DNA of 64,000 bases. It comes from a virus. Positions 2,970-58,349 of the stretch are shown here, piece after piece. Every line of letters starts with the position of its first letter. Position 1 is the stretch's first letter. The stretch is from IMG/VR virus record IMGVR_UViG_3300045988_143165, positions 3,410 to 67,409 of that record; one strand, 5' to 3'. The position numbers and the translations under genes are program-made. The notes beneath the pieces were generated by a model, which did no database searches, was not told the DNA's origin, and saw only the letters and a list, made by a program, of their open reading frames with translations.

Positions 2970-4169
2970 TCAATATATTGTACTTCCTTTGTTGGTTCTC
3001 TTTATATCTTCTGAAAATTTTGTATTAGATAAATATATATTATCGAAATGTTTTAACAAATCTTGAATTTTACAATTACCTGCAATTTCATTATCCGTAT
3101 AATTCAAATGAGTAATCATAACAGAAGTTTTTGTTCCGCTGATTTTTTCTCTTGCTCTTTGTATATCAGCTTTCACTCTATTGATAAACTCATCATAATC
3201 AAACATTCCATACCTTATTGTTTGCTGGTAATCGTTATAACAGTTTGTAAGGTCAGTTATATCTTTATTTATATCCGACTTATCACATTCTGTTGGTAAT
3301 GTTCCTGCTCCGTGTCTGGTAAAATAAGACCTTGTAATATAACAAATTTCAACATCGCAATCAAAATCATTAACTCTTTGAATGGGTGTATAAGAAGTAG
3401 TATTACTTGCTGTGATGTATGGCAATGCTTTTAGATTATTCTCATCAAGTTCAAGACCTTGCGCACCCTCAAATATAATGGTATTATACTTATTTCGGAT
3501 TCTATCGAAATCACACATAAAAGTTATATATTGCATTTCTCTTAAATCACTAACGAAATGTTCAATTAACCCTTTAGACTTTATCAGCTCTTGATATTCT
3601 TGTGGAATTTCTGTTATTCCGTATTCAAATAATTTTTTAGGTAAATAAACATTTGCTATATTATGTAGATAATCTACAACATCTTTATCGTTCATATGAG
3701 ATAGTTGGTTATAATCTAATGCAAAAACACCATCATCATACCTTTTTTGTGTTTCCCAAATACCATAACCACAAGAACCGTGTCTTTTATTCTCTCTATG
3801 TATTTCAACAATTTGATTGATAAACATATCATACATAGTGCTTACTCTACATTTAGGAGAAATCATACATATAGGTTTGATGCCATATTTTTTAAGCTCA
3901 TTATATTCTTGAATGAAGATTGCAGGATTAACCATAAAGTTTTGGTCAAAGTATGTATGAGCATTATCAAATGTGCCACTTCCAAAATGATGGAAAATAT
4001 GCCTTGTGCCATCTTTAAGTTCGACAGTATGACCTCGTTGACATCCTCCATTAAATAAAACATTTAAGCACTTATTTTTCGCGGATTGAGAGAAAAAATG
4101 TGTTGCCAATCCTTTTCCTTCATCTCCATAATTACTACCTATTACTACTTTGACCTTAACTTTACTCAT
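2970..4169 (-). CDS. adenylosuccinate synthetase family protein (PurA-like; PurZ candidate)
   Basis: P-loop GDEGKGL and GGCQRGHT, FEGAQG, TASNTTS, TRHGAG motifs align with E. coli PurA along the whole length. Confidence 0.8.
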   Translation of the reverse strand: MSKVKVKVVIGSNYGDEGKGLATHFFSQSAKNKCLNVLFNGGCQRGHTVELKDGTRHIFHHFGSGTFDNAHTYFDQNFMVNPAIFIQEYNELKKYGIKPICMISPKCRVSTMYDMFINQIVEIHRENKRHGSCGYGIWETQKRYDDGVFALDYNQLSHMNDKDVVDYLHNIANVYLPKKLFEYGITEIPQEYQELIKSKGLIEHFVSDLREMQYITFMCDFDRIRNKYNTIIFEGAQGLELDENNLKALPYITASNTTSYTPIQRVNDFDCDVEICYITRSYFTRHGAGTLPTECDKSDINKDITDLTNCYNDYQQTIRYGMFDYDEFINRVKADIQRAREKISGTKTSVMITHLNYTDNEIAGNCKIQDLLKHFDNIYLSNTKFSEDIKRTNKGSTIY

Positions 4170-8001: not shown

Positions 8002-8418
8002 TTATACAAATTGTAAGTATATTGGTTTTGGATTGAGCATTGCATTTCCATCTCCGAGAACATATTGGTCGATTTTCGGCTTAATAACTTCTTGAATATA
8101 TGTTTCTCTTATTCGAGAATCCATAAAAATAACTTGTGAACAAATTTCAGAAATCATATTCTCTTTGGTTATTAGATTGATAATGCTACCATTGAAAAAC
8201 TCAATCTTAATTTGCTCACCTTCAGCAATAGATTTTATCTCACAGTCATAAGTCACCTTCTTATAGTATTCAATGATTTCGTCAAGCATTGTTTTAGCAG
8301 AAACCATATCCTCAATATAAAAAGTAATTATGTAGTTCGATAAGGTAATGCACCTATCGAGGAATTTATAACCTCGAATTTTCGATTGTTCAAATATTGA
8401 CATTATCTTGACTCCCAC
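8002..8418 (-). CDS. hypothetical protein
   Basis: ORF in the operon. No motif recognised. Confidence 0.35.
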   Translation of the reverse strand: MGVKIMSIFEQSKIRGYKFLDRCITLSNYIITFYIEDMVSAKTMLDEIIEYYKKVTYDCEIKSIAEGEQIKIEFFNGSIINLITKENMISEICSQVIFMDSRIRETYIQEVIKPKIDQYVLGDGNAMLNPKPIYLQFV

Positions 8419-9440
8419 GGAAATTCAGAATGACCAAAGTGACCAAACTTTGCAGTATCATTAAACTTAAATGTTCCATCTATCAAATGCAAATCTTCGA
8501 TAATCCTTTTTGGTGTGCATTCATCATAGAAACAGTCCGGTATATCAATTACTTCCTTGTTTGTCTTTGCATAAATTCCAAGAGGCTTATCCATACCTAT
8601 TGCATAAGAAATCTGAATTTCGCACCAGTTGACATCGGGTAATGTATCAAGACATTCGATTGCAAGCTGTCTTGCCTTATACGCTGCCGAACGGTCAACT
8701 TTTGTTGGGTCTTTACCAGAGAATGCACCACCTCCGACATTTGCAAAAGATTGATAATTGTCAACTACAATTTTTCTGCCGGTTAGACCTGCATCTCCAT
8801 CAAAACCACCGATTAAGAATTTACCCGTCGGATTGATGTGAAACTCTCTGATTGCAATTCCATAATTTGAACAAAGTGTCTCACAGTAGTCAGTAAGAAT
8901 TTTATCTGTCTCTGCTCGATTTGTTTCTTTGTTCTGATATGAGATAATAAAATCCTTTATATACTCCAATTTGTTATTTTCATCATAGAACCCTGTTATC
9001 TGTGCCTTGCCATCAGGAAGAAATCTGTCATCAATTTTGACAAGTCTATCATAGAATGCCGATAAATCTTGAAGGATAGCCATTGCCGTAGGAATGTAAT
9101 CCACTGTATCTCTGCACGCATACCCGAACATCATTCCTTGGTCTCCAGCACCTCCAGCATCAACGCCCTGCGCAATATCAGGTGACTGTTTACCGATGTT
9201 ATCAATAACTTCATATTTATTTGGGTCATATCCAACATCACGAAGAGCTTCTTTAACAATGTTTGTTACATTGACTAATGCTCTTGAAGTTACTTCACCT
9301 GTTACGAATATTTTTCCTTTGCCGCCGACAGTTTCAATGCCGCATCTGCTATGTTTATCCTGCTTCAAAAAAGCATCAAGAAGTGCATCACTTATTTGGT
9401 CGCAAACTTTGTCAGGGATGTCCTCTAAAAACAATTTCAT
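8403..9440 (-). CDS. metK: S-adenosylmethionine synthetase
   Basis: GAGDQGMMFGYA and GGGAFSGKDPTKVDRSAAY signatures. The N-terminus MKLFLEDIPDKVCDQISD aligns to the E. coli MetK start, so ATG at 9440 is preferred over the track's TTG at 9467. Confidence 0.85.
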   Translation of the reverse strand: MKLFLEDIPDKVCDQISDALLDAFLKQDKHSRCGIETVGGKGKIFVTGEVTSRALVNVTNIVKEALRDVGYDPNKYEVIDNIGKQSPDIAQGVDAGGAGDQGMMFGYACRDTVDYIPTAMAILQDLSAFYDRLVKIDDRFLPDGKAQITGFYDENNKLEYIKDFIISYQNKETNRAETDKILTDYCETLCSNYGIAIREFHINPTGKFLIGGFDGDAGLTGRKIVVDNYQSFANVGGGAFSGKDPTKVDRSAAYKARQLAIECLDTLPDVNWCEIQISYAIGMDKPLGIYAKTNKEVIDIPDCFYDECTPKRIIEDLHLIDGTFKFNDTAKFGHFGHSEFPWESR

Positions 9441-9615
9441 TGCTGTAATAGAAAGACATATAATCAACTCCTTTCATTTTCAACGAAGCGCCAAGTATAT
9501 CCACCTGCGCTTTACGCTCATATTTATTATTACAAACATCGCTTATTCGTTTATAATTTGTTCCTGTTATTAGTTAAACACCTAACAGATTTTCTTCGAT
9601 AAGTTGATTATTCAT

Positions 9616-22035: not shown

Positions 22036-22875
22036 TTATAAGTAATCTCTCATTTTAGTAATTCCGTCTATTAACCATTGATATTTACTTGTAACATCAA
22101 CAACCTTTCCACCATAACAATAATAATGAACTATTGGTAATCTCCGATATTCAGGTGTTAATAGATTTGCATTTCTTCTTAATTTATACCAAATAGCTTT
22201 TAGAATCTTATTTTCAAAGTCAGGCTCAAATCTACTACTTTTACCATCATTTGTTTCTTTTAAGATTTCTTTACCTCTGCTTTTAGCATTAAATCCATAT
22301 AAATAACGTAATTCTTCTCTTTCTCTCACCGAATCATCAATAGATAACCAATACCAATATCCCTCAACTGATAGAAAATCACCGTCATCTGTATGTATAG
22401 GAAACTTATAAAAGTTACTTAACATTTTTCCTAAATCAGTTTTGCCTTTACTATAAATATTGATATGTGTAATTCCGTCATCTGTATCTTTTATAGAATT
22501 CATATCAATATATTCTTTTACACAATATCCATTACGATTTAACCAACCGGAAACAATATGTCTGTGGCAAAAATCTCTTGGAATTTCGTAACACACAAGG
22601 GCAATATCTTTGTTATCATTATTAGAACTAATTTTATTTAGTTCATCAATTACATTTTGTGGAGTAAGACTACTTAATACTTCATCATAAAAATGTTCAA
22701 TATAATAATCGTTATTTTTAGTTTTTTTCCACTCGGAAAAGAAACTCCATTTAGGTGCTAATTTCTTATACTCAATTCCATCCCATTTTTCGGGCGGTTT
22801 TCCAGCTATTGAAACTGGTATAATACTTTCTGGCAAATGGCGAATATTTGCAAAATATGTAGTATAAATATTCAT
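22036..22875 (-). CDS. DUF488-domain protein
   Basis: YTTYFANI...LVCYE...FCHRHIV pattern of DUF488. Confidence 0.4.
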   Translation of the reverse strand: MNIYTTYFANIRHLPESIIPVSIAGKPPEKWDGIEYKKLAPKWSFFSEWKKTKNNDYYIEHFYDEVLSSLTPQNVIDELNKISSNNDNKDIALVCYEIPRDFCHRHIVSGWLNRNGYCVKEYIDMNSIKDTDDGITHINIYSKGKTDLGKMLSNFYKFPIHTDDGDFLSVEGYWYWLSIDDSVREREELRYLYGFNAKSRGKEILKETNDGKSSRFEPDFENKILKAIWYKLRRNANLLTPEYRRLPIVHYYCYGGKVVDVTSKYQWLIDGITKMRDYL

Positions 22876-22909
22876 TGATAAATCTCCAATTATCATTTAC
22901 AATATATTA

Positions 22910-23353
22910 TCAATGATATAATTGATATTTTTTACTTATGTAATGAGCCATATCATCTTTAAGAGGACAAAACCAAATTCCAGTTAGTGTTGTTCCGTTT
23001 TCTTCTGGTGTAAGCTCGGTAAGACAAGCATCATAAATTAAACCATAATGAACATTCTCTATCAGCCCAAGTTCTTGTGCAATCTTGACCGCTTTAAGTA
23101 AATGATTTTTATTCCTTGCTTCACAAATGGTTTTTGTAAATGAACCATTTAGATATTGTTCAAATATTTCTTTATCGATTATTCCTTTAATTTCATATCC
23201 GGCATAATCATCCAAAGGTTTCGCATAATTCCTTAATCCACGAGTCCAATATGCTTCGGCACAATGAGATACTTGGGCTGCAAGTTTGCCGGGAGACATA
23301 TTCAAATCTTTTCGCATTATGAATAATCTTCTCATTAAAATAGCTCCCACCAA
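22910..23353 (-). CDS. PTH2-family peptidyl-tRNA hydrolase-like protein
   Basis: RKDLNMSPGKLAAQVSHCA matches the PTH2 signature (DLxMxxGKxxAQxxHA). Confidence 0.5.
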   Translation of the reverse strand: MVGAILMRRLFIMRKDLNMSPGKLAAQVSHCAEAYWTRGLRNYAKPLDDYAGYEIKGIIDKEIFEQYLNGSFTKTICEARNKNHLLKAVKIAQELGLIENVHYGLIYDACLTELTPEENGTTLTGIWFCPLKDDMAHYISKKYQLYH

Positions 23354-23583
23354 TAATCAAAAATTCTCTTATAATCACAATGTCTCATATCGCCTTTATA
23401 TTTGCGTGCTTTCTTGCTTGATATTTTTTTAAGATACTTTTTATATTTCCTGCCACCACAAGAATATTTTATATATCTTCTTTTTTTCTCGTCATACCAA
23501 GCACCAGCACCATATGAATTCTTGGTTTCATTATAAAGTTTTTTAAGTCTGTGATTTCTTTCCTGACTTCTGCGATAACTCAT
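23335..23583 (-). CDS. small basic protein
   Basis: ORF rich in K/R/Y. Confidence 0.3.
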   Translation of the reverse strand: MSYRRSQERNHRLKKLYNETKNSYGAGAWYDEKKRRYIKYSCGGRKYKKYLKKISSKKARKYKGDMRHCDYKRIFDYWWELF

Positions 23584-24394
23584 ATTGCCCTCCCAAGTAT
23601 ATTAAATCATTGACATACTTTCGACCATCTTCCTTAAAAATAGGAGTTTCATTATCAATAATCCATTTACTTCTCCCTGTTGTTTCATCAATCTTACGAA
23701 TACAACAACTACCTCTCTTGTATTTCGTAGGACAATTATTCCAGTTGACACCTTTTTCGAGCATAAGCATATCCTGAATATCGCTTATAGATTTTTTATC
23801 TAACTGCTTATGAGAAAAATATGCTCTACCAACCATCTGAATAGAATTTCTGGTTGCATCATTCTGTCTCCAAAGCAAATTATTGCAAACCTCATCTTTT
23901 GGAATATTAAATACACGGGCATCAAACATTGCCCCTTTATCTATTGCTCTATTAAGTACCTCAATATATTCTGATTCGGGTGGAATATCTATATCTTGAA
24001 GTTCTAAAACCGAATTTATATAATCATTGGCTCTTTTATTGAAAAATTTATTAAAAGCCATTGTTGCCATACTGGCTGCAACGCTCGCACATTTTTGGAT
24101 ATTATAATCAAACCAAGCAGAAGTATCTATATTTCTGTAATCAACAAGAACAAGAGTAATCTCATCGGATTGTGTATATCCAAGAACGCAACCCTGAATA
24201 TTCTCACAAAGATACTTCATTGTCTCCTGCATAGTTTTAGAAAGCACATCATCAAAAGGTTTTTGAAAACCTCTTGTGAATGTATGAAATGCTTTACCGT
24301 CAATTCGTATAATAACTGGGGTTCGAGTTGTCAAATAGTGTCTCGACACAAATTCATACTTTTTCATTCTTTTATCAAATGCACTGTATTTCAT
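23543..24394 (-). CDS. Thg1-like protein (tRNA-His guanylyltransferase family, 3'-5' nucleotidyltransferase)
   Basis: N-terminal KYEFVSRHYL...VIIRIDGKAFHTFT matches the Thg1 family (FEYVR...RLDGRNFH). Confidence 0.65.
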   Translation of the reverse strand: MKYSAFDKRMKKYEFVSRHYLTTRTPVIIRIDGKAFHTFTRGFQKPFDDVLSKTMQETMKYLCENIQGCVLGYTQSDEITLVLVDYRNIDTSAWFDYNIQKCASVAASMATMAFNKFFNKRANDYINSVLELQDIDIPPESEYIEVLNRAIDKGAMFDARVFNIPKDEVCNNLLWRQNDATRNSIQMVGRAYFSHKQLDKKSISDIQDMLMLEKGVNWNNCPTKYKRGSCCIRKIDETTGRSKWIIDNETPIFKEDGRKYVNDLIYLGGQYELSQKSGKKSQT

Positions 24395-24960: not shown

Positions 24961-25054
24961 TGGCTCATATAGGATTTGAACCTATGTCTCCGGCAGTGTG
25001 CCTGATTTACACTACATACCTCCGCCAGTGTCTTAACCACTTGACCAATGAACC
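24961..25054 (-). tRNA. atypical 94-nt tRNA-like gene (anticodon arm irregular or with an insertion)
   Basis: Good acceptor (GGTTCAT/ATGAGCC), D-arm (GTC-AAGTGGTTAA-GAC) and T-arm (ATAGG-TTCAAAT-CCTAT). Between D-arm and T-arm there are 39 nt with a 5-bp stem (CTGGC/GCCGG) enclosing 29 nt that include a 6-bp hairpin with a 9-nt loop. Confidence 0.4.
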
Positions 25055-26211: not shown

Positions 26212-26304
26212 TGGCGGCGAGTGTAGGATTTGAACCCACGGGCGGCTCATCACCGCCGCCTGTTTTCAAGACAGGTGCAATAAGCCGGACTCTGCCAACT
26301 CGCC
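26212..26304 (-). tRNA. tRNA-Ser (anticodon TGA), type II
   Basis: Anticodon stem CCTGT/ACAGG, loop CTTGAAA, long variable arm, CCA encoded. Confidence 0.75.
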
Positions 26305-26536: not shown

Positions 26537-26774
26537 ATATGTATATGGCAAAGACCTTTATCTATCTAACTTTGCCCCTGTTAAACAGGTTTTAATCAGA
26601 CAAAAAAATACTCTTAATTTATCTTATGAAATACACAAAAACATAGAAAGGAAAGAGAGAGGTGAAAAATTCTGATTAGGTTTTGTAGTTATCGTATTTT
26701 GTTTTGCTCAATAATGTTTCTTAATGCTGGAAATTTCGGTCTCTTTGATTTTAGGGCTGCTGCCTTACCTCTTG

Positions 26775-26830
26775 GCGACTACCAACAATGTAGATAGGTG
26801 GGAATCGAACCCACGATTAGCAGCTTGATA
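26775..26830 (-). ncRNA. tRNA 3'-half-like cargo (T-arm plus 3' acceptor-like strand) inside structured-RNA unit (a)
   Basis: GTGGG-TTCGATT-CCCAC T-arm followed by CTATCTA. No matching 5' half was found downstream. Confidence 0.35.
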
Positions 26831-26969
26831 TTATGTATTTGAAGAAGGATGAAACCTTTCAGCCAGCTTATATTCAGAAATTTGAGGTTCTTATAATATA
26901 TAGATTAAAAGTCTATTCCTAATAGGTAGAAGGATGAATCTCAACAGCCGAATATTTATTTAACTTACA

Positions 26970-27035
26970 TTAGATATTATAGCACACATTTTACTATTTG
27001 TCAAGTGTTTTTCTCAATATTATTTCTAATTATTT
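26970..27035 (-). promoter_or_regulatory. consensus sigma-A-type promoter with conserved upstream element (P1)
   Basis: Minus sense: TTAGAAATAATATTGAGAAAAACAC, TTGACA, 17 nt, TATAAT. Confidence 0.55.
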
Positions 27036-27200
27036 GAAATTTATTCGATGCGGTAATTTTAACATCTAATAATACTATTGCACTACCAACTGTGCTACAT
27101 CCCATCTTCGATGGAATGGTGGGAGTCGAACCCACGACACATAGTTCCTTGATATATAGAAGGATGATGTTGGTCAGCCGCATATTTTGTATTGTGGAAA
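27030..27200 (-). ncRNA. Y-RNA-like structured RNA carrying a permuted tRNA-like module (unit c)
   Basis: Order on the minus strand: helix 1, internal loop, helix 2, AUCCUUCUA loop, ACTAT, variable GTGTC, T-arm GTGGG-TTCGACT-CCCAC, CATTCCA, loop TCGAAGA, TGGGATG, TA, D-arm GCAC-AGTTGGTA-GTGC, A, ATAGT, 7 nt, helix 2', loop, helix 1'. Acceptor-like strands pair 7/7 (one G-U) and anticodon-like strands 5/5, but the acceptor is capped by a loop. Confidence 0.55.
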
Positions 27201-27476
27201 TTTGTTTCTCTAAAATCTTAATCCCAAATCAAGTGCCTATTGGCGTAGAAGGATGAAAAACAATAGCCACATAATATTTAGAAAGAAGTGTGGGAATTTA
27301 ATGCTCTTTTTAGAAGAATTTGCAGTTCTTGATATTATGTAGAAGGATGAGCATTACAGCCACAAATTATGAATAGTGGAAATCGAACTTTCTATCTTAT
27401 CATCATTATGTAGGTGGCTTAACCACCGAAATTATTTTCTTGTAGAAGGAAGAAAGCCCATAGCCACAAAATACTT

Positions 27477-29726
27477 TTATAATAACTGACCCATAAAGTA
27501 ATCAGTATCGAAAGCCGTGATAATCGGAACTTCCGGCTTTTCCTTTACAACAGGTTTTGTAGTACCCGTAACCTCGTCAAGCTCATTTACAATTTCATAA
27601 GGTACTGTTGTATCATTGCTGAAAATGATGTCTGCTTCATTTCTATCTGTGACAATACTACCTCTTGCAATAGCATTCATCATTATGAGGTCATAAATAT
27701 TTGCCTTATTAAGATGTGTTAAGCCATAGCAAGTTGCGGTTACACCGTGTAAATTACTTTCAAGATTATTTCCATAAAACCTCGAACTTGCATTCTGAAG
27801 GTTCATATCACACCAAATGAATTTACGCTCAACGCAATCGAATATAACGGGTATAGCAACAGTGCTGTCAGCAGTTAAGTCAATCTTCATTTCAACTGTT
27901 TGCGGCTCGAATATCTCGCCGCTATTTATATCTTCTCTTTCCATCCATCCAAAACGGCAATTAGGAAGCGTAGAAAAATGCTGTCCTGTAAAACTATAAA
28001 CCTGAAATGCAATGTATCTACCAGTGTTTTTAGCAACTGCATCAATCTCTACATCAATAAACTCTGCTACACCATCACCATTAACATTTCCGCCATTGGT
28101 AATATCACCCGAATGATATGCTCTGTACTTTGCAGAGCGAAGTTGTGTGTATGATACACGGTCAACATACTGCCAATTTTCATCATAGATGGTTGCAGAA
28201 AGGTCAATATCAACCCTGCTTTCATCCCAGCTATTTCTCGTCTTATCGGTATTAGTCCACCAAATAAAACCACGAACAGCCGTAGCATCTTCCTTAATGG
28301 GCAATTTACTACCACGAACAATGGTCTTAACAGCCTTACTTGCACTTCTCTGACTAAACGGAACAAGGTAGTTTTTGAAATCCTCATCAATATAAACCTT
28401 TCCGAGAAAATCTTTTTCCTTGTACTGTTCAATTAAAGCCTCACGGCAAATCCTTGCAACATTTTTACATACATTGCTATTGATTTTAGGAAGTTCATTT
28501 CTGATAACCATAGCTTTTGCAAGGTTTCCTTTAGGAAAGAATACTCTTACAGGCTGATTATCATTCTCCATTCTTCCTATGAAATGCTGTCTTACCTGAA
28601 GGAGTACAGGAGTTGAGATTTCTGTTGCAACTTCCTTAAAACAGTTGACAATATAATTCGGATTATCTGCATCACGAACAAGTTTGTCAAGTTGCCTTGC
28701 GAACTCTCCGGGTCTTACTTTTAACAAGGTGGCAGCTTCACGCATATCTTTTGCGGTAATTGCTGCCTGAACCTTTCCTGCAAACATAAGAGGCTTTTTC
28801 TCGTTTCTTAAAGTATTGAATGCAGCGTTGACATTGCTATACTTTGCTTTTTTATATTCAAACGGATGAAGAATTTCTGCAACTCTAATCCATTCATACT
28901 GATAACGGAATAAATCCTCTGTTATGTTACCACAACCAGTAAGCAAGTCCATAATCATACGGCGTTCAACCCTACGAAGATTTCTGTACTTGGTTTTTGA
29001 AGCAAGGCTAATGTCGCCATCGGAAAGTGCTGTTACAAGTCGTAAAACATCCGTTGCGGTCTTGAAGTATTTGCCTATTGAATCGGCGCTTTTGATTGGC
29101 GCTTTTTCAATAATGAGTTTTCCAACGAATGCAACATTCTCTTTAAGAGGGATTGTATCAGGAAGATATGTAGTATAATCAGGACAAGCAAGAATGATAG
29201 TTTCAATGTCCTCTTTGTCCTGCTCCGAGATTGATGTCTTGCTCTCAACAAGATTTGTGAAAATAGTCATCAAATCATCGTGACTTCCTACTGATAAAAC
29301 AGCCATTTTATTGTCATCAATAAGCGGTAAACGCTCATTTTTTTCGTATTCGGGAATCAATGTGCCAAATGACCAGTAATGAACGATTGCATTGATAAAT
29401 AACTCAATGTCACTTGCTTCTGCAACCTGCTGTGGGAAGTTCGGGTACATTGGATTATATGTAACATCCGCACCAACAAGTTCTTTAAGTGCAGGAATAA
29501 GGAAACCATAGAAAGCAGTAAACTCATCTCTTGTAAAATGAAATGCTTTTTCAATAAGTTCCTTTGAAAATGTAAATCCAAGAGCCTGAACATTTTTCAA
29601 GCCGGAAACAACGAGTGCTTTTTCTGTCTTGCTCTGCTCATAAGTCATATTAGCAGGTTCAAACATCACTGAATGCTTACGGCGTAACAAAATCTTATCA
29701 AGTTCTGTTAATTTGAAATTCTTCAT
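27477..29726 (-). CDS. large hypothetical protein (749 aa). Alpha-helical N-terminal ~480 aa plus a C-terminal beta-rich region with a possible vWA-like DxSxT segment. Candidate RNA-binding partner of the flanking structured RNAs
   Basis: Long intact ORF with RBS aaaggagattattacaATG, flanked on both sides by the structured-RNA units. No secure motif recognised. A Ro60/TROVE-like assignment is only a hypothesis. Confidence 0.45.
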   Translation of the reverse strand: MKNFKLTELDKILLRRKHSVMFEPANMTYEQSKTEKALVVSGLKNVQALGFTFSKELIEKAFHFTRDEFTAFYGFLIPALKELVGADVTYNPMYPNFPQQVAEASDIELFINAIVHYWSFGTLIPEYEKNERLPLIDDNKMAVLSVGSHDDLMTIFTNLVESKTSISEQDKEDIETIILACPDYTTYLPDTIPLKENVAFVGKLIIEKAPIKSADSIGKYFKTATDVLRLVTALSDGDISLASKTKYRNLRRVERRMIMDLLTGCGNITEDLFRYQYEWIRVAEILHPFEYKKAKYSNVNAAFNTLRNEKKPLMFAGKVQAAITAKDMREAATLLKVRPGEFARQLDKLVRDADNPNYIVNCFKEVATEISTPVLLQVRQHFIGRMENDNQPVRVFFPKGNLAKAMVIRNELPKINSNVCKNVARICREALIEQYKEKDFLGKVYIDEDFKNYLVPFSQRSASKAVKTIVRGSKLPIKEDATAVRGFIWWTNTDKTRNSWDESRVDIDLSATIYDENWQYVDRVSYTQLRSAKYRAYHSGDITNGGNVNGDGVAEFIDVEIDAVAKNTGRYIAFQVYSFTGQHFSTLPNCRFGWMEREDINSGEIFEPQTVEMKIDLTADSTVAIPVIFDCVERKFIWCDMNLQNASSRFYGNNLESNLHGVTATCYGLTHLNKANIYDLIMMNAIARGSIVTDRNEADIIFSNDTTVPYEIVNELDEVTGTTKPVVKEKPEVPIITAFDTDYFMGQLL

Positions 29727-29821
29727 TGTAATAATCTCCTTTGTTTTAATTTGTCGGTAATCATTGAAACTATTTAGAACCCAATTTCTTTAATAGAAGG
29801 AAGTTTCAATATAGCCGTTAA

Positions 29822-29966
29822 GGGAAATTTGATGGAAATTTTATACTCTATTCTTGTAGGCGCTCTATCCGATTGAGCTAACTACCCACGGGGTAGTGCC
29901 GGGCTTGAACCGACAACCTCCTGCTTAACAGGCAAAAGATTTAGAAGGATGAGTATTTTCAGCCAT
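29822..29966 (-). ncRNA. Y-RNA-like structured RNA carrying a permuted tRNA-like module (unit g), immediately 3' of tRNA-Lys
   Basis: Same architecture as unit c. T-arm GTCGG-TTCAAGC-CCGGC, ACTACCC, loop CGT, GGGTAGT (7/7 complementary), TA, D-arm GCTC-AATCGGATA-GAGC, anticodon-like stem CCTAC/GCAGG (4/5). Clamp helices ttgatgg/ccatcaa and atactc/gagtat covary with unit c. The D-arm and variable region resemble the adjacent tRNA-Lys. Confidence 0.55.
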
Positions 29967-29968
29967 CA

Positions 29969-30044
29969 ATGGTGTGCCAGAGAGGAATCGAACCTCCGAC
30001 CTACCGATTAAAAGTCGATTGCTCTACCGATTGAGCTACTGGCA
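29969..30044 (-). tRNA. tRNA-Lys (anticodon TTT)
   Basis: Anticodon stem ATCGA/TCGGT, loop CTTTTAA, T-arm GGAGG-TTCGATT-CCTCT, CCA encoded. Confidence 0.8.
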
Positions 30045-33234: not shown

Positions 33235-33290
33235 ACTATATCATATATTTAGGTGTTTGTCAAGAGGTTTTGCAAAATTATTTTTTTAAG
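33235..33290 (-). promoter_or_regulatory. consensus promoter with conserved upstream element (P9)
   Basis: Minus sense: TTGACA, 17 nt, TATAGT, preceded by TAAAAAAATAATTTTGCAAAACC. A downstream hairpin GCTGACC/GGTCGGC lies at 33199-33217. Confidence 0.5.
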
Positions 33291-34030
33291 ATTGAAATGC
33301 TACAATTTGATACGGTATATTTCGTTTTTTAGCACTATCAATCATTTGTTTTGTTCCTTTACTCTTTCCATTCCAAAATGCAAACACATATGAATCGCAA
33401 GTAGATACATCTATATAGTCGAGCATTTGAATGTTTCTAATATAACCTGCCCTTTTACCGAATTGTTCCCAATTTGCCGGAAACCTCTTTAATAATATGC
33501 ACTTTTCTCTGGCATATCTTTCTCCGAGTTGGTCTGTACCACGAGCAGCACCGCTTATAATAGTTATCTTATTATTAGGGTGTTCTTTGACAAATTTATT
33601 AAGGTACTTTTCCAATAGTTCGTAGTTATTAAAGTCTCTACTACCAGCAATAATAACCCTTATTTCAGGTCTTTCTTCATTAAATAATTTTTCCACAAAT
33701 AAATCCATTTCATAAATCAACTTGAAACAGTTACCGTGAGATGCGTGATTCTGCCAAGAACAGTAAATCTCATTGAACTTTTCTCGCTTCATTCTTCCTT
33801 GTGCTACTAACTTTGCGTACTTTCTTAAACGCTTTTTAACTTGCCTTTTGTTATCTCCATTAGGAACAATTTCAGTCTTGTTATTAAGCGTTAATTTTAA
33901 GTTAGCTAAATACTCTTTGGTTTTAATAAGACATTCTTTTAGATACTCTTTATCATTAGATAGTAAATAAAAGTCATCCATATATCTACCATAATATTTG
34001 CATCCAAGCTCATCGACAATATAATGGTCA
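33286..34030 (-). pseudogene. reverse-transcriptase remnant (motif C YMDD plus thumb) fused to a SLOG/DUF2493-like domain. N-terminal RT motifs are missing
   Basis: The frame is open from the stop at about 34031: VFVLIFLNGLDHYIVDELGCKYYGRYMDDFYLL..KLTLNNKTEIVP (retron/Abi-type RT motifs B', C and thumb), then RVIIAGSRDF...ISGAARGTD...NWEQFGKRAGYIRN...GKSKGTKQ (SLOG-like). Only about 190 nt separate it from the upstream DUF6273 gene, too short for RT motifs 1-A-B. Confidence 0.5.
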
Positions 34031-34992: not shown

Positions 34993-35760
34993 CTAATTTG
35001 AATGATATTCAAAGCACGGCATTAACTGTAACTTGAACATATTTTTTTCGTGCATTTCGTTAATTTTTGCCTTTACTTTTTCGTCATCACATATTCCAGT
35101 TCTTATATACTTATCAAGAACTGCATAGGTGAAGCCAAAACTATCTTCATCTGTCTTTCCACAAAGTCCATCTGTCGGAGTTTTGTGTGCAAGCTCATTA
35201 GGTAAGCCACAATCCTCTGCTATGGCAATTACTTCTGTTTTTGTAAGCATTGCAAGAGGACTAAAATCTCCTGCTGCATCACCGTATCGTGTAGAATAAC
35301 CGATATAATCTTCCGAAAGATTGCAGGTATTCATTACTCTGCCATTCATTGATTGAGATACAGCATATAATGTAGCCATTCTCAAACGAGCAGGAAGATT
35401 GATTTTAGTCTGTTCTGAAATATCAATAGGATAATAACCGTCAAAATTTGGGTCATAGTAATCATCAATATTACAGATTATTCCATTGTATGCTTGTTCA
35501 ATATTAACCTCTGTATATTTGATACCAAGATGTGAAACCAACTTAATAGCAGAATCAATATCTTTCTGCACGCCATTTGGCATAAGCACACCAAATACCC
35601 TGTCTTTCCCAAGTGCTTCAACGCACAAAGCAGCAACCGTGCTTGAGTCTATGCCACCTGAAATTCCGATAATAGCATTACAGTCTTTTCCATTTTTTTT
35701 AAATATATCTCTTATCCATTCAACAACATCATTTTTGACTTTTATTACATCAAATGTCAT
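34993..35760 (-). CDS. nadE: NH3-dependent NAD+ synthetase
   Basis: PP-loop GISGGIDSS. About 255 aa, typical NadE size. Distal part of the NAD+ salvage gene set. Confidence 0.8.
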   Translation of the reverse strand: MTFDVIKVKNDVVEWIRDIFKKNGKDCNAIIGISGGIDSSTVAALCVEALGKDRVFGVLMPNGVQKDIDSAIKLVSHLGIKYTEVNIEQAYNGIICNIDDYYDPNFDGYYPIDISEQTKINLPARLRMATLYAVSQSMNGRVMNTCNLSEDYIGYSTRYGDAAGDFSPLAMLTKTEVIAIAEDCGLPNELAHKTPTDGLCGKTDEDSFGFTYAVLDKYIRTGICDDEKVKAKINEMHEKNMFKLQLMPCFEYHSN

Positions 35761-37220
35761 TAGAACTTACCTCCGTGCAATGTATTTCTTACTTCCGAAA
35801 GAGAGTATTCTTTTATCATCTTACCATCACTGAATATAGGCTGGAGCATATTATTCTCGTTATACGCCTCTGCCCAGGTATGACCATCTGTAAATGTGAG
35901 GTCTGAATTTACAATACAACAACCTTTTTGTGATTTCTTAAATCCACCGTCTTTTGGATTCTTAAAAATCGGCACAGATTTTCCGTTAATCTCACAATAT
36001 GTTGCTTTAATGCAAGAACTAAAGGTATCACGGGTAAAAGGCTTTAGAATACCATCTTCCTCAATGCACTGGAATGAGAAAGAACCAACTCCAAGCGCAA
36101 CGTTTGAGCAAGCAAAACCATTCTGCATAAGGATTTCATAGATTTGCTCACATCTCTGTACCGTAATACTATCACCATAAATAGCCTTAACGTGTGGGTC
36201 AAGTACTTTATATCCCTTGCTGTTTACTGTTCCGCCAAAAATATCCCACAGTTTGAATACTGTCCTTGTAACAACCTCAACACAATCACCGGAATCTCCA
36301 CGCATAAGCATACAACCATTGTGTGACATAATTTCAGGTTTTAATTCAGGAAGAACATTATCAATTATGTTCCAGTAATCATATGAATCAAGCACAGCGG
36401 AAAACGAATTATTGGGATAAATTTCCGCTAAAAGTCTGCGAAGAAGCGTAATTTCATCACCATCGACTGCATAATTACTACACATAACTGAATGCTCTGT
36501 GCTGGGTGAACCAAATGCCACAGGTTCTTTTGTGCAATCGCAATTATACATTGCCTCAAGATAGGGAACTGTCGGAACGGTTGCAGTATTCAAAAATGAC
36601 ATACACCAACCTGCACCAGCTTTAATTGCTGATTCTGTGCATTCCTCGCCTCTGAAATCAAATGCTCCGAGTGCTTTTGACTTTGGAACATCATCATCAC
36701 AAGTCAGGTCGTAATATTTATTTACAATCTGACGATATGTATATCCGACTGTTGCAGCCAACATAGGATGCCAGCTTTCAGCAGAAATAAGGCTTTCAAG
36801 AGCTTGTGGAAGCCAAGCGAAATCAGAATGTGTATTTGTAATTCCAAACATCGGAACGTGCATCGGTACAAGTGTTCCTTCAGGAAGTGCCACAATCTTA
36901 ATCGGAAGATAGCCGAGTTTGTGAAGTTCTTCAATCTTCTTAATACCGTAAACATTCTCTCCAAGAGAAGCATCCATAATTCTCTTATAATTTGCGATAA
37001 CCTCGTCAAAAGGTTTATTGAAAAATTCTTCGTTGAAATAATCAATAAGGTATGTTTTTATAAAACCCTGCAACCCAAACATAACAACCTTATCCCATCT
37101 CTTAACTCTCGTCATTCTCGGAGTAAAATAAGATACTGATTTTGTGATTCCTTTGGGCAACATTTCTGCGTGTACTGCCTTATAAAAATCAATAAGCAAC
37201 ATAGGATTTATCTTTCTCAT
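35760..37220 (-). CDS. nadV: nicotinamide phosphoribosyltransferase (NAMPT/NadV family)
   Basis: Aligns with human NAMPT along its length (IDFYKAVH/TDSYKVTH, LPIKIVALPEG, VLDSYDYWN/VSDSYDIYN, LMRGDSGD/IIRPDSGN, NSKGYKVL). RBS taaGGAGaattgaaATG at MRKINP. Confidence 0.85.
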   Translation of the reverse strand: MRKINPMLLIDFYKAVHAEMLPKGITKSVSYFTPRMTRVKRWDKVVMFGLQGFIKTYLIDYFNEEFFNKPFDEVIANYKRIMDASLGENVYGIKKIEELHKLGYLPIKIVALPEGTLVPMHVPMFGITNTHSDFAWLPQALESLISAESWHPMLAATVGYTYRQIVNKYYDLTCDDDVPKSKALGAFDFRGEECTESAIKAGAGWCMSFLNTATVPTVPYLEAMYNCDCTKEPVAFGSPSTEHSVMCSNYAVDGDEITLLRRLLAEIYPNNSFSAVLDSYDYWNIIDNVLPELKPEIMSHNGCMLMRGDSGDCVEVVTRTVFKLWDIFGGTVNSKGYKVLDPHVKAIYGDSITVQRCEQIYEILMQNGFACSNVALGVGSFSFQCIEEDGILKPFTRDTFSSCIKATYCEINGKSVPIFKNPKDGGFKKSQKGCCIVNSDLTFTDGHTWAEAYNENNMLQPIFSDGKMIKEYSLSEVRNTLHGGKF

Positions 37221-37231
37221 TTCAATTCTCC

Positions 37232-38368
37232 TTATACTGCATAATGAATGTTCTTGGTAGGACATCTTGAAAAACTCAAATATTCAACCTCTGTTGACCT
37301 TGCACAATCAACAACCTCTTTACAATCATCATCCTGTGAATATTTGATTTGAATATTTTCAGGACTAATACAATAGAGAAGTTTTTCAACATTATATTCT
37401 GCATCCGATACATTGAAATCAACTCTTACAAAATCATTACCTTTCTTATCTTCAAGCCATAAATAATCTTCATAATCTCCGAACATATCCAAACCGTAGT
37501 TTTTGTGCTGTGCTGTGAGTCCATTCTTATAATGAAGAACAATATTATATCTTAAATAATTATTAAGATTTACAATGTTCAAATCTTTAATAGCTTCCTT
37601 AAATGAAATTCCTGTGTTAATTTCAAATGCGATAGCTCTTAAACAGTCATAATTCAAATTTACTTTTCTTGAAAAAGCGATAATAGAATCAATCTCACCG
37701 TAATACTGTTCATCAAGTTTATCAATAAGATATTCCCGAACTTCCGTTGGTGTCGGATAATCAAATCTGAAATGATAATGAAATCTTCCCGGTCTGTTTA
37801 TTAGATAATTGTTTAACTTACCGAGGTCATTACAAGTAATAACAAACAATTTTTTGCCACCAGAAACACCATCAAATAAGCTCAAAAGATTTGCCTGTGG
37901 AGAAGCCTCTCCATCTCCTGCCTTTACTTCTCCAAATGTCTTATCGAACTCATCAAACAAAACCATAACCTCTTGGTCAATGCTTTCAATATATGATGCA
38001 ATGCCAGGAATATACCTATCTACAACAATAAGTGGAATATCTTTCTTCTGTGCTTCAATAGATAATAGCCTTGCAAATAAAGATTTGCCAATACCCTTAT
38101 CTCCACTTAAAATAACGCCAAGATTTCTGTTAAATTTGTCAAATGAGTTCAAAACCTTATTTACTTTTTCGATATGTACTCCGTAAACTTTATCTTCTTT
38201 TACTTCAATATCGACATACTTTTCAAGATAAAATCCCTTAAATTGACTAAATCTCACAACATAACTTTGTGTTGGAAATTTTTCATATGTTTTTAATGTA
38301 TCATCAAAAACCTCATATGAATTTCCAGAACTAATAACCTTCACTTTATTTTTCCCCCTAATCAACAT
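37232..38368 (-). CDS. AAA+ ATPase
   Basis: Walker A GDKGIGKS, Walker B VLFDEFD, sensor ITCN, RPGRF arginine-finger region. Embedded between nadV and prs. Confidence 0.6.
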   Translation of the reverse strand: MLIRGKNKVKVISSGNSYEVFDDTLKTYEKFPTQSYVVRFSQFKGFYLEKYVDIEVKEDKVYGVHIEKVNKVLNSFDKFNRNLGVILSGDKGIGKSLFARLLSIEAQKKDIPLIVVDRYIPGIASYIESIDQEVMVLFDEFDKTFGEVKAGDGEASPQANLLSLFDGVSGGKKLFVITCNDLGKLNNYLINRPGRFHYHFRFDYPTPTEVREYLIDKLDEQYYGEIDSIIAFSRKVNLNYDCLRAIAFEINTGISFKEAIKDLNIVNLNNYLRYNIVLHYKNGLTAQHKNYGLDMFGDYEDYLWLEDKKGNDFVRVDFNVSDAEYNVEKLLYCISPENIQIKYSQDDDCKEVVDCARSTEVEYLSFSRCPTKNIHYAV

Positions 38369-39261
38369 AAAATTAACTGGTCAATGCCCGAAAGCAATTC
38401 GGACAATTCTCTTGCAATTTCTGCTTGATATTCAAATACCTGTATCTTATCTGATAAGCCAAGAGAATTTGCATACTCTTTAACTTTATCAGTAAAAATA
38501 CTATTAGTAGTAAATACCTTTTTAATCAAACCACTTTTGAAAATTTCTCCATCAAAGATAGTTTTCTCGCAATGTGATATGTAAAGATATACATTCTTTG
38601 CACCGAGTTCTTTTAATTTCTTTGCTGAAAAATAGAATGTACCACCTCGGCTACTGATGTCATCAACAATGATAATATTGCTGTCATTGATTAAATCTTT
38701 TGCACCTGAAACATCAAGTCCTTCGATTTTTCCTGTTTCCCAATTACGCTTTTTAATTCCAAAAGCATAAGGCATATCGAGCATACCGGAATATCTTTTC
38801 ATTGCTCCTTCGTCTGGATAAAAAGCAATAAGAGGTTCATCATTGATTTCGTTTTTAATTTCCTTTATTACCTTTTCGATATAAGGTTTAGGGCTTTCAA
38901 CTTCGATATTGTTAATTAGAGCCTCACTGACAGATGAATGTGGGTCAAGAACAACAACCTTATCAAAATTAAGATTATTGATAAACTCTGCAAAATACTT
39001 TAATGTAAATACATCATTTTCGCTCTTTACCCTATCCTGTCTGGCATTTGGAATGTAAGGCATAACAAGATTTACTTTGTTAGCTCCAATTCTCCTTACG
39101 TGATTTGCAAGGAACATTATGGCAATCATTTCCTCATTGCTTTCAAAATGCCAACAAATAGTAACTGTATGATTGAAAATAAATTCAACATTAGGATTGA
39201 GTCTTAATGTTTCATCGGGAAACTTATTTATTGTTATTTTTTTTCCGTTAATTAAAATCAT
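38362..39261 (-). CDS. prs: ribose-phosphate pyrophosphokinase family (PRPP synthetase, or an ADP-ribose pyrophosphokinase Adps-like enzyme)
   Basis: MPYIPNARQDR (compare PYFGYARQDR) and IIVDDISSRGGT (PRPP-binding loop). Confidence 0.75.
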   Translation of the reverse strand: MILINGKKITINKFPDETLRLNPNVEFIFNHTVTICWHFESNEEMIAIMFLANHVRRIGANKVNLVMPYIPNARQDRVKSENDVFTLKYFAEFINNLNFDKVVVLDPHSSVSEALINNIEVESPKPYIEKVIKEIKNEINDEPLIAFYPDEGAMKRYSGMLDMPYAFGIKKRNWETGKIEGLDVSGAKDLINDSNIIIVDDISSRGGTFYFSAKKLKELGAKNVYLYISHCEKTIFDGEIFKSGLIKKVFTTNSIFTDKVKEYANSLGLSDKIQVFEYQAEIARELSELLSGIDQLILC

Positions 39262-55286: not shown

Positions 55287-58200
55287 TTAATCGTTTGTGA
55301 TTTTTTGATGACCCCATAAGATTTTAATATTGCCTTTTTCGTCCTTTCCCTTTGTCATTAACACCTTTAGCATCATTTCGTTAATTCCAAACTTACTATA
55401 TAGGTCATCATCTTCGACTTTTTCATCTTTCATAAAAAGGTTCAATTTTTCTTTACACAGAATCATTTTTAACAGATTTCCTTCTATACTGTTTTCATAA
55501 GTTACAAAATATATTTCCTTCCATTCCGTAGAAGTGAATCTGATAAATCGAAAATAAAACTGACTCATACTTGCATTATTCCAATGCAATTCTGGAATAA
55601 TACACTTATTTACAAAGTCAATATTCATACTGCACGATAATGATTGCTGTGTGCAAATTAAAATACCATTTCTTGTTTTTTTCAGTTCATTACAAATTGA
55701 TATTCTTTTCTTTAATGTCGTGTTATTTCCAGTAATAACAAACAATGGTCTATTCGGATATAATTTCTTAATTGCTGTGGCATAAGAATAAACATTGTCA
55801 ACGTGGCGAACACCTATTACAATTCTTTCATTATTCCACTTTTCAATCATCTCAAATACTTTTTTATATTTACTCGACAATTCAGTTGAAGAATATTCTT
55901 TGAATGTGTGAGGACAAGCACATATTTTAAGCAAAAGAGTTAATTGATTTAAGATTCTCAACATAGCATCTTTTCTGCTGTTTCCTGTTGTCTTAAATAG
56001 ATATTGCATTTTATAAAATTCCTCTATTGCTATTGAATATAGTGCTTCTTCTTCCGGTGTGAATTTACAAGTGACATTTTTGATTTCGTAAATTTTCTTG
56101 CCTGTGACTTCTTCAAATTTCCTTGTGATTATCGTTTTGTCAAGCATTTTTTTTAATGCTTCTGAATTATATATATCTTGTGTCTTTTTAACAACTCCAA
56201 ATACAGTGATTTTATCTGGCAGAAAACATTTGCTGAATAATGAATATCCTTTCTTATATGCTGGGAATGGATTATTATATTGTTCATTAAAATCGGAAAT
56301 AATTTCGCCTTTGGTTTCAGAATCCTTATTTTTATCCACAACATAAACAGTTTCACATTCACACAACATATTAACGCTATTATTGTAAAGCAATTCAAGT
56401 TGAGGGTAAATTTCACAAATATTGTTTCGTGTGCTTGTTCCGGTCATACATACTTTGTATTTAATTTTTCTAAAACAACTTAATACTGCTTTTGTTCTCT
56501 TGCTATTTTGATTTGATATGCTATCACTTTCATCCATTACAAGCATAACTTTTTGAGATTGCATTTTAACAAATTTCTTAATATGTTTTTGTAAAGTATT
56601 GAGTATATCAAGAGTAATTAAAACAATTTGTCCTTTTTTAATCTTCTGAATATCCGAATAACTATTGATTCTTATATAGTCATAATGGTAAGCCTCAAGG
56701 CAATCTTGCCAGTTGTTATTTATCGCGATAGCAGTAGAGACTACAAAAGCATTTCTGATATTGTTGTGTTGGAATCTATAATCCATTTGAACTATGCCGG
56801 CAAAAGTTTTTCCGCTGCCCTGTTCCCACTGCAAGAAAACATATCTTTTCTGCAAAAGTTTATTTATATCTTCTTTTTGCTTTTCCGTCAACTTATAAGT
56901 TTCATTTTTGTTATAATCGTGGATAGAAAAATTATCAAGAAATTTCATTATATCAGAATCTTGTTCCATATCCTTAAATGATACTTCATTACTTTGAAAA
57001 TCTTTAATTTTCTTATCAATAAGTTTTTCATACTTTTTGTTTTCAAATTGATATGAACATTGACCTGAAACAATATCGTTAATAGATACAAATTTTCCAA
57101 AATCTCCATATTGTTTATTCAATAAGATTTTCATTTTACGGCTATATGGTTTTAACTTTAAGCCATAATCAGTTTTTACTAATTCAATCTTATCAATTTC
57201 AACTTTATGTTCAGATTTGATAACTTTTCTTAAATAGGCAAGTACCTTATTAGGCGTGATTTTCCTCTTTTCCCATTCTTCATACTTCATTCCTTCTGGC
57301 ATTTTCTGTGTTTGGTATTTGTAAAGATACTCGCTGCATTTTGCATATTTATCCTGTAAAGCAGGATTTCTCTTAATATCAAACATCATTTTTTTAACTT
57401 TATATTCAAATTGTTTTTGTTCTTGAGTCTTGCCATCGTGTAAATTTTCAAAAAACAACTGATTTTTCAACTTATTTCTCAAAGTGATTGCAGGCTTTAT
57501 ATAATTTTCATAAATGAAATTTGAAGATTCTATATTAAGACAATCAATTACAATGTTTTTCGTGCTAAATTTTACATCTAAAATATGTTCACTTTTCTTT
57601 TGGAAAAACATAATTTTAGTAGAAAAATTAGTAACTCCGAGATTTTTGAATGTATCTGAAGGAATGTCAAACTGACATAATAGATTCCATTCTTTTGAAA
57701 CTTCTTCTATCATTCCTCTATCGGAAAAATCATCCGCCAGAAAACTTGATGGAACTACCAGAGCCATTAAACCACCCGGTTTAATATTCTCTGATGCTTT
57801 AATTGTGTAGTATAGTTGTGAAACATAAGTCGTATCTCCAATTTGCCACTTCAAATTAAATGGCGGATTTCCGACAATAACATCTGCTCTTATTTCAGGA
57901 TTATATACTCTTATATCTGAACACCGGATATTTGCTTTTGGGTATAAATATTTTGCAACCTTATAAGATTTCATATCAATTTCACAACCAAAGAAATTAC
58001 TTTCCTGGGGAACAGAATTTGCAAAAGCTCCGTGACCACAAGTTAAATCCATAATTATATCGAATTTGTCCGGTTTCAAACATTGTATTACAAAATCGGT
58101 AATGGCATACGGTGTAAAAAACTGTCCTTGTTCAAATTCTTTTTTGGCTTCTGAATAATCATAATAATTTTCATAGTTTGAAAATTTTTCTCCACTTAAT

Positions 58201-58349
58201 CCACCGTTTCCGGTGTATGAGCTTGCTATGTCAGTTGCAGTTATTCCGTTTTCTTCCGCTATTCCGTTGTCAATCAAATAAAGAATTTTGTTGTTAATCT
58301 CTGCCCGTTTATCTTGTGGAATTATCAAATTTTCAACAATATATTTCAT
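55287..58349 (-). CDS. N6-adenine DNA methyltransferase fused to an SF2 helicase (DarB-like anti-restriction candidate)
   Basis: N-terminal GQFFTPYAI, DLTCGHGAF and VIVGNPPF (gamma-class N6-MTase). C-terminal helicase motifs WEQGSGKT (I), LVMDESDS (II) and MTGTSTRNN (III). 1020 aa. Confidence 0.75.
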   Translation of the reverse strand: MKYIVENLIIPQDKRAEINNKILYLIDNGIAEENGITATDIASSYTGNGGLSGEKFSNYENYYDYSEAKKEFEQGQFFTPYAITDFVIQCLKPDKFDIIMDLTCGHGAFANSVPQESNFFGCEIDMKSYKVAKYLYPKANIRCSDIRVYNPEIRADVIVGNPPFNLKWQIGDTTYVSQLYYTIKASENIKPGGLMALVVPSSFLADDFSDRGMIEEVSKEWNLLCQFDIPSDTFKNLGVTNFSTKIMFFQKKSEHILDVKFSTKNIVIDCLNIESSNFIYENYIKPAITLRNKLKNQLFFENLHDGKTQEQKQFEYKVKKMMFDIKRNPALQDKYAKCSEYLYKYQTQKMPEGMKYEEWEKRKITPNKVLAYLRKVIKSEHKVEIDKIELVKTDYGLKLKPYSRKMKILLNKQYGDFGKFVSINDIVSGQCSYQFENKKYEKLIDKKIKDFQSNEVSFKDMEQDSDIMKFLDNFSIHDYNKNETYKLTEKQKEDINKLLQKRYVFLQWEQGSGKTFAGIVQMDYRFQHNNIRNAFVVSTAIAINNNWQDCLEAYHYDYIRINSYSDIQKIKKGQIVLITLDILNTLQKHIKKFVKMQSQKVMLVMDESDSISNQNSKRTKAVLSCFRKIKYKVCMTGTSTRNNICEIYPQLELLYNNSVNMLCECETVYVVDKNKDSETKGEIISDFNEQYNNPFPAYKKGYSLFSKCFLPDKITVFGVVKKTQDIYNSEALKKMLDKTIITRKFEEVTGKKIYEIKNVTCKFTPEEEALYSIAIEEFYKMQYLFKTTGNSRKDAMLRILNQLTLLLKICACPHTFKEYSSTELSSKYKKVFEMIEKWNNERIVIGVRHVDNVYSYATAIKKLYPNRPLFVITGNNTTLKKRISICNELKKTRNGILICTQQSLSCSMNIDFVNKCIIPELHWNNASMSQFYFRFIRFTSTEWKEIYFVTYENSIEGNLLKMILCKEKLNLFMKDEKVEDDDLYSKFGINEMMLKVLMTKGKDEKGNIKILWGHQKITND

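Follow-up and report, generated by a model that had tools for sequence, protein, structure and literature searches.

Amid 13 tRNA genes, the window (the whole 64-kb stretch of viral DNA analyzed here) carries on its minus strand a tandem array of small, similar units around an open reading frame (ORF) of 749 aa (27477-29726, minus strand). The question raised by this locus is what these units are and whether they belong to the protein in their midst. An earlier note, made from the letters alone, had described seven small structured RNAs, two of them with a tRNA-like cargo. Our analysis leads to a broader answer: the array probably encodes a ribonucleoprotein of the Ro60/Y-RNA kind, of which the phage versions would present tRNA mimics. 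Two aspects go beyond the earlier note, namely that the family reaches far past this phage and that the small cargos look like anticodon-arm mimics.

The shared unit was recognized by reading the sequence and with a simple pairing finder. From 5' to 3', it consists of the first strand of a stem P1, the trinucleotide CUR, the first strand of a second stem P2, the motif (A/U)UCCUUCUA, a variable cargo, the 3' strand of P2, (A)AUUY and the 3' strand of P1. P1 has about 5-7 bp with an inner end that is invariably GG/CC. P2 has up to 9 bp and a closing C-G pair, followed by the pyrimidine-rich (A/U)UCCUUCUA. Because P2 reaches 9 bp, the internal loop across the family measures about 3 nt versus 4 nt (CUA/AUUY). 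The 6/7-nt loop that had been assigned to every unit is present in some window units, where three extension pairs of P2 are not formed.

A covariance model (R1), built from 70 units of other genomes and containing no window sequence, was run over the 64 kb with filters off. It finds exactly eight units, all on the minus strand (E-values between 3e-15 and 2e-4), and the best match after these has an E-value of 0.6. Two units are located upstream and six downstream of the ORF. The 11-mer TCATCCTTCTA, allowing at most one mismatch, occurs seven times and only on the minus strand, in the places where it had been reported, versus 2.2 occurrences scattered over both strands in shuffled sequence. All seven units of the earlier note are recovered by R1, and one is added (unit 2 below); the array is likewise real but runs down to position 26723 rather than 26840. 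Neighboring units are spaced by 0-11 nt, with a single gap of 90 nt as the exception.

Unit 1 (29828-29970; R1 E-value 3e-8; minus strand, like all others) directly adjoins the 3' end of a tRNA-Lys gene (29970). It combines P1 gatgg/ccatc, P2 atactc/gagtat and AUCCUUCUA with a permuted tRNA-like cargo. Unit 2 (29750-29822; 2.9e-11), with UUCCUUCUA, P2 uugaaac/guuucaa and a short cargo, ends 23 nt ahead of the start codon of the ORF. Unit 3 (27372-27471; 2.4e-11) starts 5 nt past its stop codon, again with UUCCUUCUA, and has a 50-nt cargo with the hairpin GGUGG-UUAAG-CCACC. Unit 4 (27286-27367; 3.4e-10) carries a putative anticodon-arm mimic, aagaa-CUGCAAA-uucuu, with a loop of the Cys GCA type, and unit 5 (27190-27274; 2.9e-15) a hairpin GCC-AAUA-GGC plus a putative mimic cuuga-UUUGGGA-uuaag with a Pro UGG-type loop. 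Unit 6 (27046-27185; 4.2e-7) contains the second permuted tRNA-like cargo. Unit 7 (26870-26955; 3.3e-12) has a putative mimic with a Lys UUU-type loop, auaga-CUUUUAA-ucuau. Unit 8 (26723-26869; 2.3e-4), with AUCCUUCUU, holds the third permuted tRNA-like cargo.

The scaffold helices are conserved as helices. In a scaffold-only alignment of 77 non-redundant phage units, 82% of the cells are paired versus 57% after shuffling, and the covariation score is 0.657, compared with 0.175 for shuffled units and no more than 0.135 if the pairing partners are shifted by 1-3 columns. For 85 non-redundant bacterial units, the corresponding values are 89.8% versus 55.8% paired and a score of 0.869 versus 0.195. 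The units came from two sets, A2 with viral and metagenome contigs and A4 with genome and MAG contigs, and some near-identical units are found in both. Columns 13/41 and 14/40, which belong to the P2 extension and lie outside the selection made by the unit finder, are paired in 74-94% with five to six pair types; the third extension pair (column 12/42), equally unselected, forms in 53% of the phage units and in 82% of the bacterial ones. U-G pairs are frequent, for example in 37 and 28 sequences at two positions of the bacterial units. Since a U-G pair corresponds to a C-A mismatch on the opposite strand, the units are strand-specific, RNA-level elements with a conserved fold. The helix pairs listed in the earlier note (among them atgcgg/ccgcat and tgatgg/ccatca) are correct, and its argument from compensatory covariation for an RNA fold rather than a DNA repeat stands up in the homologous arrays, where the helices are kept and none of 149 bacterial units lies on the opposite strand.

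These data also bear on the idea of a DNA-level repeat (an array of protein-binding sites or the scar of recombination or of a mobile element) or of a small self-cleaving ribozyme. A nearly invariant 11-mer in tandem units would suit either. We consider both very improbable, given strand-specific helices that are maintained through compensatory and G-U changes and, for the ribozyme, no matching ribozyme family in Rfam, permissive E-values included. When the window array and bacterial examples were scanned at the gathering threshold and at permissive E-values, no Rfam family matched the scaffold stem, and the matches were limited to sub-threshold ones to YrlA and chance ones.

Several other motifs were considered and rejected. 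The CUGAUGA/GAAA/UH arrangement of a hammerhead core is absent from the sequence, as are the tandem G-A pairs of a kink-turn or box C/D element, and the flanks are much too short for a group I permuted intron-exon arrangement. The motif AUCCUUCUA resembles the 3' end of 16S rRNA and may conceivably mimic the anti-Shine-Dalgarno sequence, but this would be a less economical explanation than pairing with a downstream GGA inside the unit; GGA or GGG is present in 35 of 104 loops, versus 13 expected.

The cargos of units 1, 6, and 8 share one order: the T arm is followed by an acceptor stem capped with a short loop and then by a D arm, with an anticodon-stem-like helix around all of them. In unit 6, a 7-nt loop closes the acceptor stem and the surrounding helix is AUAGU/ACUAU; the D arm of unit 8 resembles that of class II tRNAs (GCCAAGAGGUAAGGC). 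After un-permuting, i.e., joining the 5' half, an artificial anticodon loop, the 3' half and CCA, ARAGORN draws a cloverleaf tRNA for each of the three, while neither ARAGORN nor the Rfam tRNA model makes a tRNA call for the units in their native order. The Rfam model of YrlA (RF02553) aligns to the same units with 34.6 bits for unit 1 (model positions 1-114, window 29833-29942), 35.9 bits for unit 6 (27076-27143) and 21.9 bits for unit 8 (26758-26822), with E-values that are small in these searches and scores that stay well under the gathering score of 69. These three cargos, one more than the two recognized before, are circularly permuted tRNA bodies. The YrlA-type order (T arm, closed acceptor-like stem, D arm, enclosing stem) is present in three of the eight units and absent from the other five.

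With the 3' half preceding the 5' half and with complete acceptor, T, D, and anticodon stems, these units might be regarded as permuted or split tRNA genes that yield functional tRNAs by cutting and religation, as in Cyanidioschyzon merolae or Nanoarchaeum. This is hardly credible here, as the anticodon loop is missing, the acceptor stems are closed by loops of 3-7 nt and have no CCA, and the bulge-helix-bulge splicing motif is absent (no 3-nt bulges at 4-bp spacing). Furthermore, a tRNA-like cargo is missing from most family members, and the identical topology characterizes YrlA, an RNA that does not serve as a tRNA precursor (PMC4201824).

Units 4, 5, and 7 contain a 5-bp stem with a 7-nt loop (CUGCAAA, UUUGGGA, and CUUUUAA, respectively). 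The loop of unit 7 is that of the window's own tRNA-Lys, and the loop of unit 5 is presumably that of Escherichia coli tRNA-Pro(UGG). Hairpins of this anticodon-arm-like type (loop Y-U-NNN-R-N) were found in 20 of 49 distinct short cargos of related phages, versus 1.06 expected and a maximum of six over 1000 shuffles. The Lys-type loop is placed on compensating stems in different phages (auaga/ucuau, acaaa/uuugu, auaau/auuau, ucaaa/uuuga), the Pro-type loop of unit 5 recurs in other phages as well, and the cargos of relatives further include Ser GCU and Ser UGA types. Related phages mostly keep the cargo types in one order along the array. Judged by loop sequence and geometry, the short cargos of units 4, 5, and 7 are putative anticodon-arm mimics.

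The association of the scaffold with the ORF extends over the whole gene family. Viral contigs with homologues of the ORF (59-98% identity) contain same-strand unit arrays on both sides of the gene, as detected by motif scan and tblastn. A bacterial scan with one genome per species yielded 80 loci with homologues at 41-73% identity, spanning Bacillota, Chloroflexota, Cyanobacteria, Acidobacteriota, Bacteroidota, Armatimonadota, and Pseudomonadota (Paenibacillus, Brevibacillus, Bacillus and relatives, Lachnospiraceae, Chloroflexaceae, cyanobacteria, Pyrinomonadaceae, Saprospiraceae, Weeksellaceae, Microscillaceae, Adiutrix, Entomomonas, and Chthonomonadaceae). Of the 80 loci, 77 contain one or more units on the gene strand within 600 nt of the gene. 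These nearby units number 139 (108 upstream, 31 downstream), and 10 same-strand units farther away bring the total to 149. Six Brevibacillus loci (L134, L135, L138, L139, L141, and L146) have an extra same-strand unit about 1.8 kb upstream, with another ORF in between. No conserved protein-coding neighbors were found across the bacterial loci, the neighbors being unrelated from locus to locus. The bacterial cargo is usually a loop of 12-25 nt; loci L160 and L108 contain tRNA-like cargos that also match YrlA weakly. The earlier proposal of the 749-aa ORF as the partner is thus strongly supported by co-occurrence, in bacteria as well as in phages.

This linkage can be followed down to 25-33% protein identity. 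In Xanthomonas phage XacN1, three units (R1 E-values from 3e-9 to 6e-5) lie upstream of ORF396, and one of them has a CUUUUAA loop, though on a weaker stem. In Rhodococcus phage Weasels2, gp266 has four variant units on its downstream side; R1 detects three of them (E-values of 8e-5, 0.022, and 0.36), and one of the four has a tRNA-like cargo. The internal loop has diverged to CCA in XacN1 and to AUUAAG/GCUCACC in Weasels2, which would fit co-evolution with the protein. Between units 1 and 2 of XacN1 (L165 2560-2680), we observed a consensus-like TTGACA..TATAAT promoter and, after it, a tRNA-like sequence with CCA at its end. The promoter recalls the one inside the arrays of gut phages.

That internal promoter, correctly placed by the earlier note, is located in the only long gap of the window array (26976-27004, minus strand) and reads TTGACA-17 nt-TG-TATAAT, with 12 of 12 consensus matches. 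A perfect TTGACA-17-TATAAT is present inside 10 of 11 related arrays. It is relevant to the main rival explanation, in which the units act in cis as leader or attenuator elements. The protein (or a ligand that its TerD domain senses) would then bind the copies in its own mRNA and control translation or termination, without any trans-acting particle. The 108 of 139 bacterial units that lie just upstream of the gene fit a cis role at least as well as a particle, unit 2 of the window is only 23 nt ahead of the ORF, and several loci show a terminator-like U-run past P1. In Paenibacillus loci L100 (4920-5000) and L129 (4905-4995), the unit nearest the gene even separates the Shine-Dalgarno sequence GGAGG from the AUG (..CCUGGAGUCUUAAUAUG), a candidate device for translational autoregulation in which folding of the unit or binding of the protein would set the SD-AUG spacing. 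However, six of the eight window units follow the ORF, and two of these have a perfect promoter of their own in front; the 31 downstream units in bacteria show the same placement. Several bacterial units also have a -10 box 6-8 nt ahead of P1, as expected of discrete sRNA genes, and there is no obvious autoregulatory use for tRNA-like or anticodon-arm cargos with conserved loops on covarying stems. Both roles could coexist, but a cis role alone, which leaves the downstream, separately promoted, cargo-bearing units unexplained, seems rather unlikely to us.

Autoregulatory mRNA leaders, such as the ribosomal-protein leaders and the thrS operator, mimic the RNA ligand of the protein. The family resembles them in having motif copies in the 5' leader of the partner gene, with the Paenibacillus copy between the SD and the start codon, and differs from them in its many downstream copies with their own promoter and in its elaborate, variable cargo.

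The position of the array in a tRNA cluster suggests yet another explanation: the scaffold could be a protein-independent cassette that stabilizes or processes tRNA fragments in polycistronic tRNA transcripts, with decoys acting alone and a gene that is merely co-regulated. The spacing of 0-11 nt, the adjoining tRNA genes and the closure of each unit by P1, which is processing-stem-like, would agree with this. In bacteria, however, the units occur without tRNA clusters or cargo and yet always by this gene family, and an invariant single-stranded motif and internal loop would be expected of a site that is read by a specific partner more than of a generic stem. We therefore regard the cassette as more doubtful than a cis role, and the Ro60/Y-RNA-like ribonucleoprotein remains our preferred reading.

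The wider context of the array also contains tRNA-related and NAD-salvage genes. Beside the tRNA cluster (22036-24394, minus strand) are genes for a Thg1-like 3'-5' polymerase (23543-24394), a PTH2 peptidyl-tRNA hydrolase (22910-23353) and a DUF488-N3a protein; Thg1 is also found near the array in the related loci L081-L083. Among the tRNA genes of the window, tRNA-Pro(AGG) (24961-25054, minus strand) was called at 94 nt, which is unusually long for a Pro tRNA, and tRNA-Ser (26212-26304, minus strand) has 93 nt. A metabolic cluster (34993-39261 and 2970-4169, both minus strand) comprises genes for NAD synthase, NAMPT/NAPRTase-like, AAA/STAND-like ATPase, and PRPP-synthetase-like proteins, with an adenylosuccinate synthetase elsewhere; it resembles a module for the regeneration of NAD+ (counter-defence). 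In related phages (L081-L083, 1-1800), a reverse transcriptase with a fused YAcAr/DprA-like SLOG domain is encoded a few kb from the array, and the window has a stand-alone YAcAr/SLOG protein (33286-33981, minus strand). Elsewhere in the window, we found a SAM riboswitch (RF00162; 54125-54212, minus strand) with 58.7 bits, above the gathering score, a SAM synthetase gene (8403-9467) and a gene for a 1020-aa fusion of an N6-adenine methyltransferase with an SNF2/DEAD helicase (55287-58349, minus strand).

The proposed protein partner was modeled with AlphaFold2 (pLDDT 79). The model consists of an alpha-solenoid (aa 1-440), a TerD beta-sandwich (aa ~470-650) and a small C-terminal alpha/beta region. 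The C-terminal von Willebrand factor A domain of Ro60 is absent, with the TerD domain in its place. Pfam gave no match for the 749-aa protein, and none of 33 homologues matched TROVE (PF05731) even at E<=10. A phmmer search of the PDB sequences gave no match, and two family profiles gave no Ro60 there either, which we count against kinship with Ro60, and Foldseek against the PDB with the model returned only generic ARM/HEAT proteins (E>0.06). The protein is matched by PHROG 33734, of unknown function, and scores below the cutoff of NCBIfam NF041916; source annotations for the family read 'TerD family protein' or 'hypothetical protein'. The family comprises 1,459 clusters at 50% identity (E<=1e-30), nearly all of about 700 aa. 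In fold, the predicted helical part seems to come closest to the Ro60/TROVE ring. The evidence for this Ro-like fold is suggestive, and Foldseek, profile and Pfam searches find no Ro60 or TROVE; we therefore call the protein Ro-like in fold rather than a member of TROVE.

In the preferred reading, the eight units would be small non-coding RNAs, or processed segments of the tRNA-cluster transcript, that act like Y RNAs. The conserved scaffold would be the element recognized by the adjacent 749-aa protein, and the variable cargo between the scaffold strands would be an exchangeable effector module, whose short bacterial loop is presumably swapped for tRNA mimics in this phage and its relatives. 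These mimics would be of two kinds: permuted tRNA bodies that, like YrlA, have no anticodon loop, and anticodon stem-loops on their own. A particle of this kind could bring or sequester proteins that recognize tRNAs (anticodon nucleases, tRNA-modifying or repair enzymes, exonucleases), a recruitment role that would parallel the tethering of Ro60 to PNPase by Y RNAs. tRNA-Lys(UUU) is a target of anticodon nucleases such as PrrC. Together with the tRNA-body and anticodon-arm modules and the genes in the context, this suggests that the particle may be a decoy or adaptor for tRNA-directed host enzymes. Direct binding of the RNA by the protein, processing to discrete transcripts and this decoy or adaptor role are what we infer.

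A bolder version, which we put forward as tentative, is that of a widespread, unannotated ribonucleoprotein in at least seven bacterial phyla and in large phages, made of a Ro-like alpha-solenoid/TerD protein and its own scaffold RNA. In gut and jumbo phages, it would display anticodon-arm and tRNA-body decoys that bind or neutralize host defence nucleases targeting tRNA (of PrrC, PARIS, or toxin type), and would amount to a new RNA-based means of anti-defence. If the preferred reading holds, there would be a second large protein/RNA family in the Ro60/Y-RNA paradigm, with an RNA partner missing from Rfam, and the uncharacterized 'TerD family protein' family would gain a concrete, testable ligand. 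tRNA mimicry would then be reducible to the anticodon arm alone and could be multiplexed (Lys, Pro, Cys, Ser), giving phages a new answer to immunity directed at tRNAs. Several cultured organisms carry the system and make it directly accessible to tests, namely Niallia circulans NBRC 13626, Paenibacillus and Brevibacillus strains, Ruminococcus sp. YE282, and the phages XacN1 and Weasels2.

Among the known counter-defence strategies of phages, a tRNA-Lys variant of phage T5 neutralizes PARIS, whose target is tRNA-Lys(UUU) (PMC11464382). The array is similar in that phage RNAs with the tRNA-Lys(UUU) anticodon loop are encoded in a tRNA cluster beside genes of the RNA-repair type. The difference is that tRNAs of the T5 type are complete and functional and replace the cleaved host tRNA, whereas the array presents its loops on isolated 5-bp stems. 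As the Lys, Pro, and Cys loops stand on such stems in a non-tRNA scaffold, they could act only as mimics or decoys.

The closest known system is that of the Y RNAs, whose genes share the strand of the Ro60 gene and lie no more than 4 kb from it. The RNAs contain permuted tRNA-like domains and serve as the tether between Ro60 and PNPase (Chen et al. 2014, PMC4201824). Phage phiLo encodes a Ro60 that binds the phage Y-like RNAs Yrl1/2 and attenuates the host PNPase (PMC12135203). The similarities are as follows: small RNAs lie beside a protein gene, co-oriented with it and often in multiple copies; both systems occur in bacteria and in large phages; and the RNAs are modular, with a closing stem that bears a protein-site-like motif and a permuted tRNA-like domain (T arm, closed acceptor stem, D arm). 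The earlier note knew of no described ncRNA family with this architecture, but the YrlA design, a closing stem plus a permuted tRNA-like domain beside the partner gene, matches it.

The differences from YrlA and Ro60 are equally clear. The scaffold here reads GG-CUA...UUCCUUCUA...AUUY-CC. The motif GNCGAAN0-1G near the 5' end of YrlA is a putative contact of Rsr (PMC4201824); a regular-expression search for it over all eight units gave none, their conserved elements being GG-CUR and (A/U)UCCUUCUA, and we count this against a Y-RNA-like reading. The Rfam scores for YrlA are about half the gathering score, with a good alignment for the tRNA-like part only, and the scan at the gathering threshold (69 bits) gave no YrlA match among the units. 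The partner protein has no Pfam TROVE match and a TerD instead of a vWA domain, and most members of the scaffold family have no tRNA-like domain. Finally, cargos consisting of an anticodon arm only, as in the phage members, are undescribed for Y RNAs in the literature searched. Searches for a link between TerD, Y RNA, and tRNA-like elements, for anticodon-arm decoys and for the motif string retrieved nothing relevant from a key literature that was covered incompletely, so that an earlier description may exist. The architecture is that of the Y RNAs; the scaffold, the partner family and the anticodon-arm cargos are new with respect to Rfam 15 and the literature searched.
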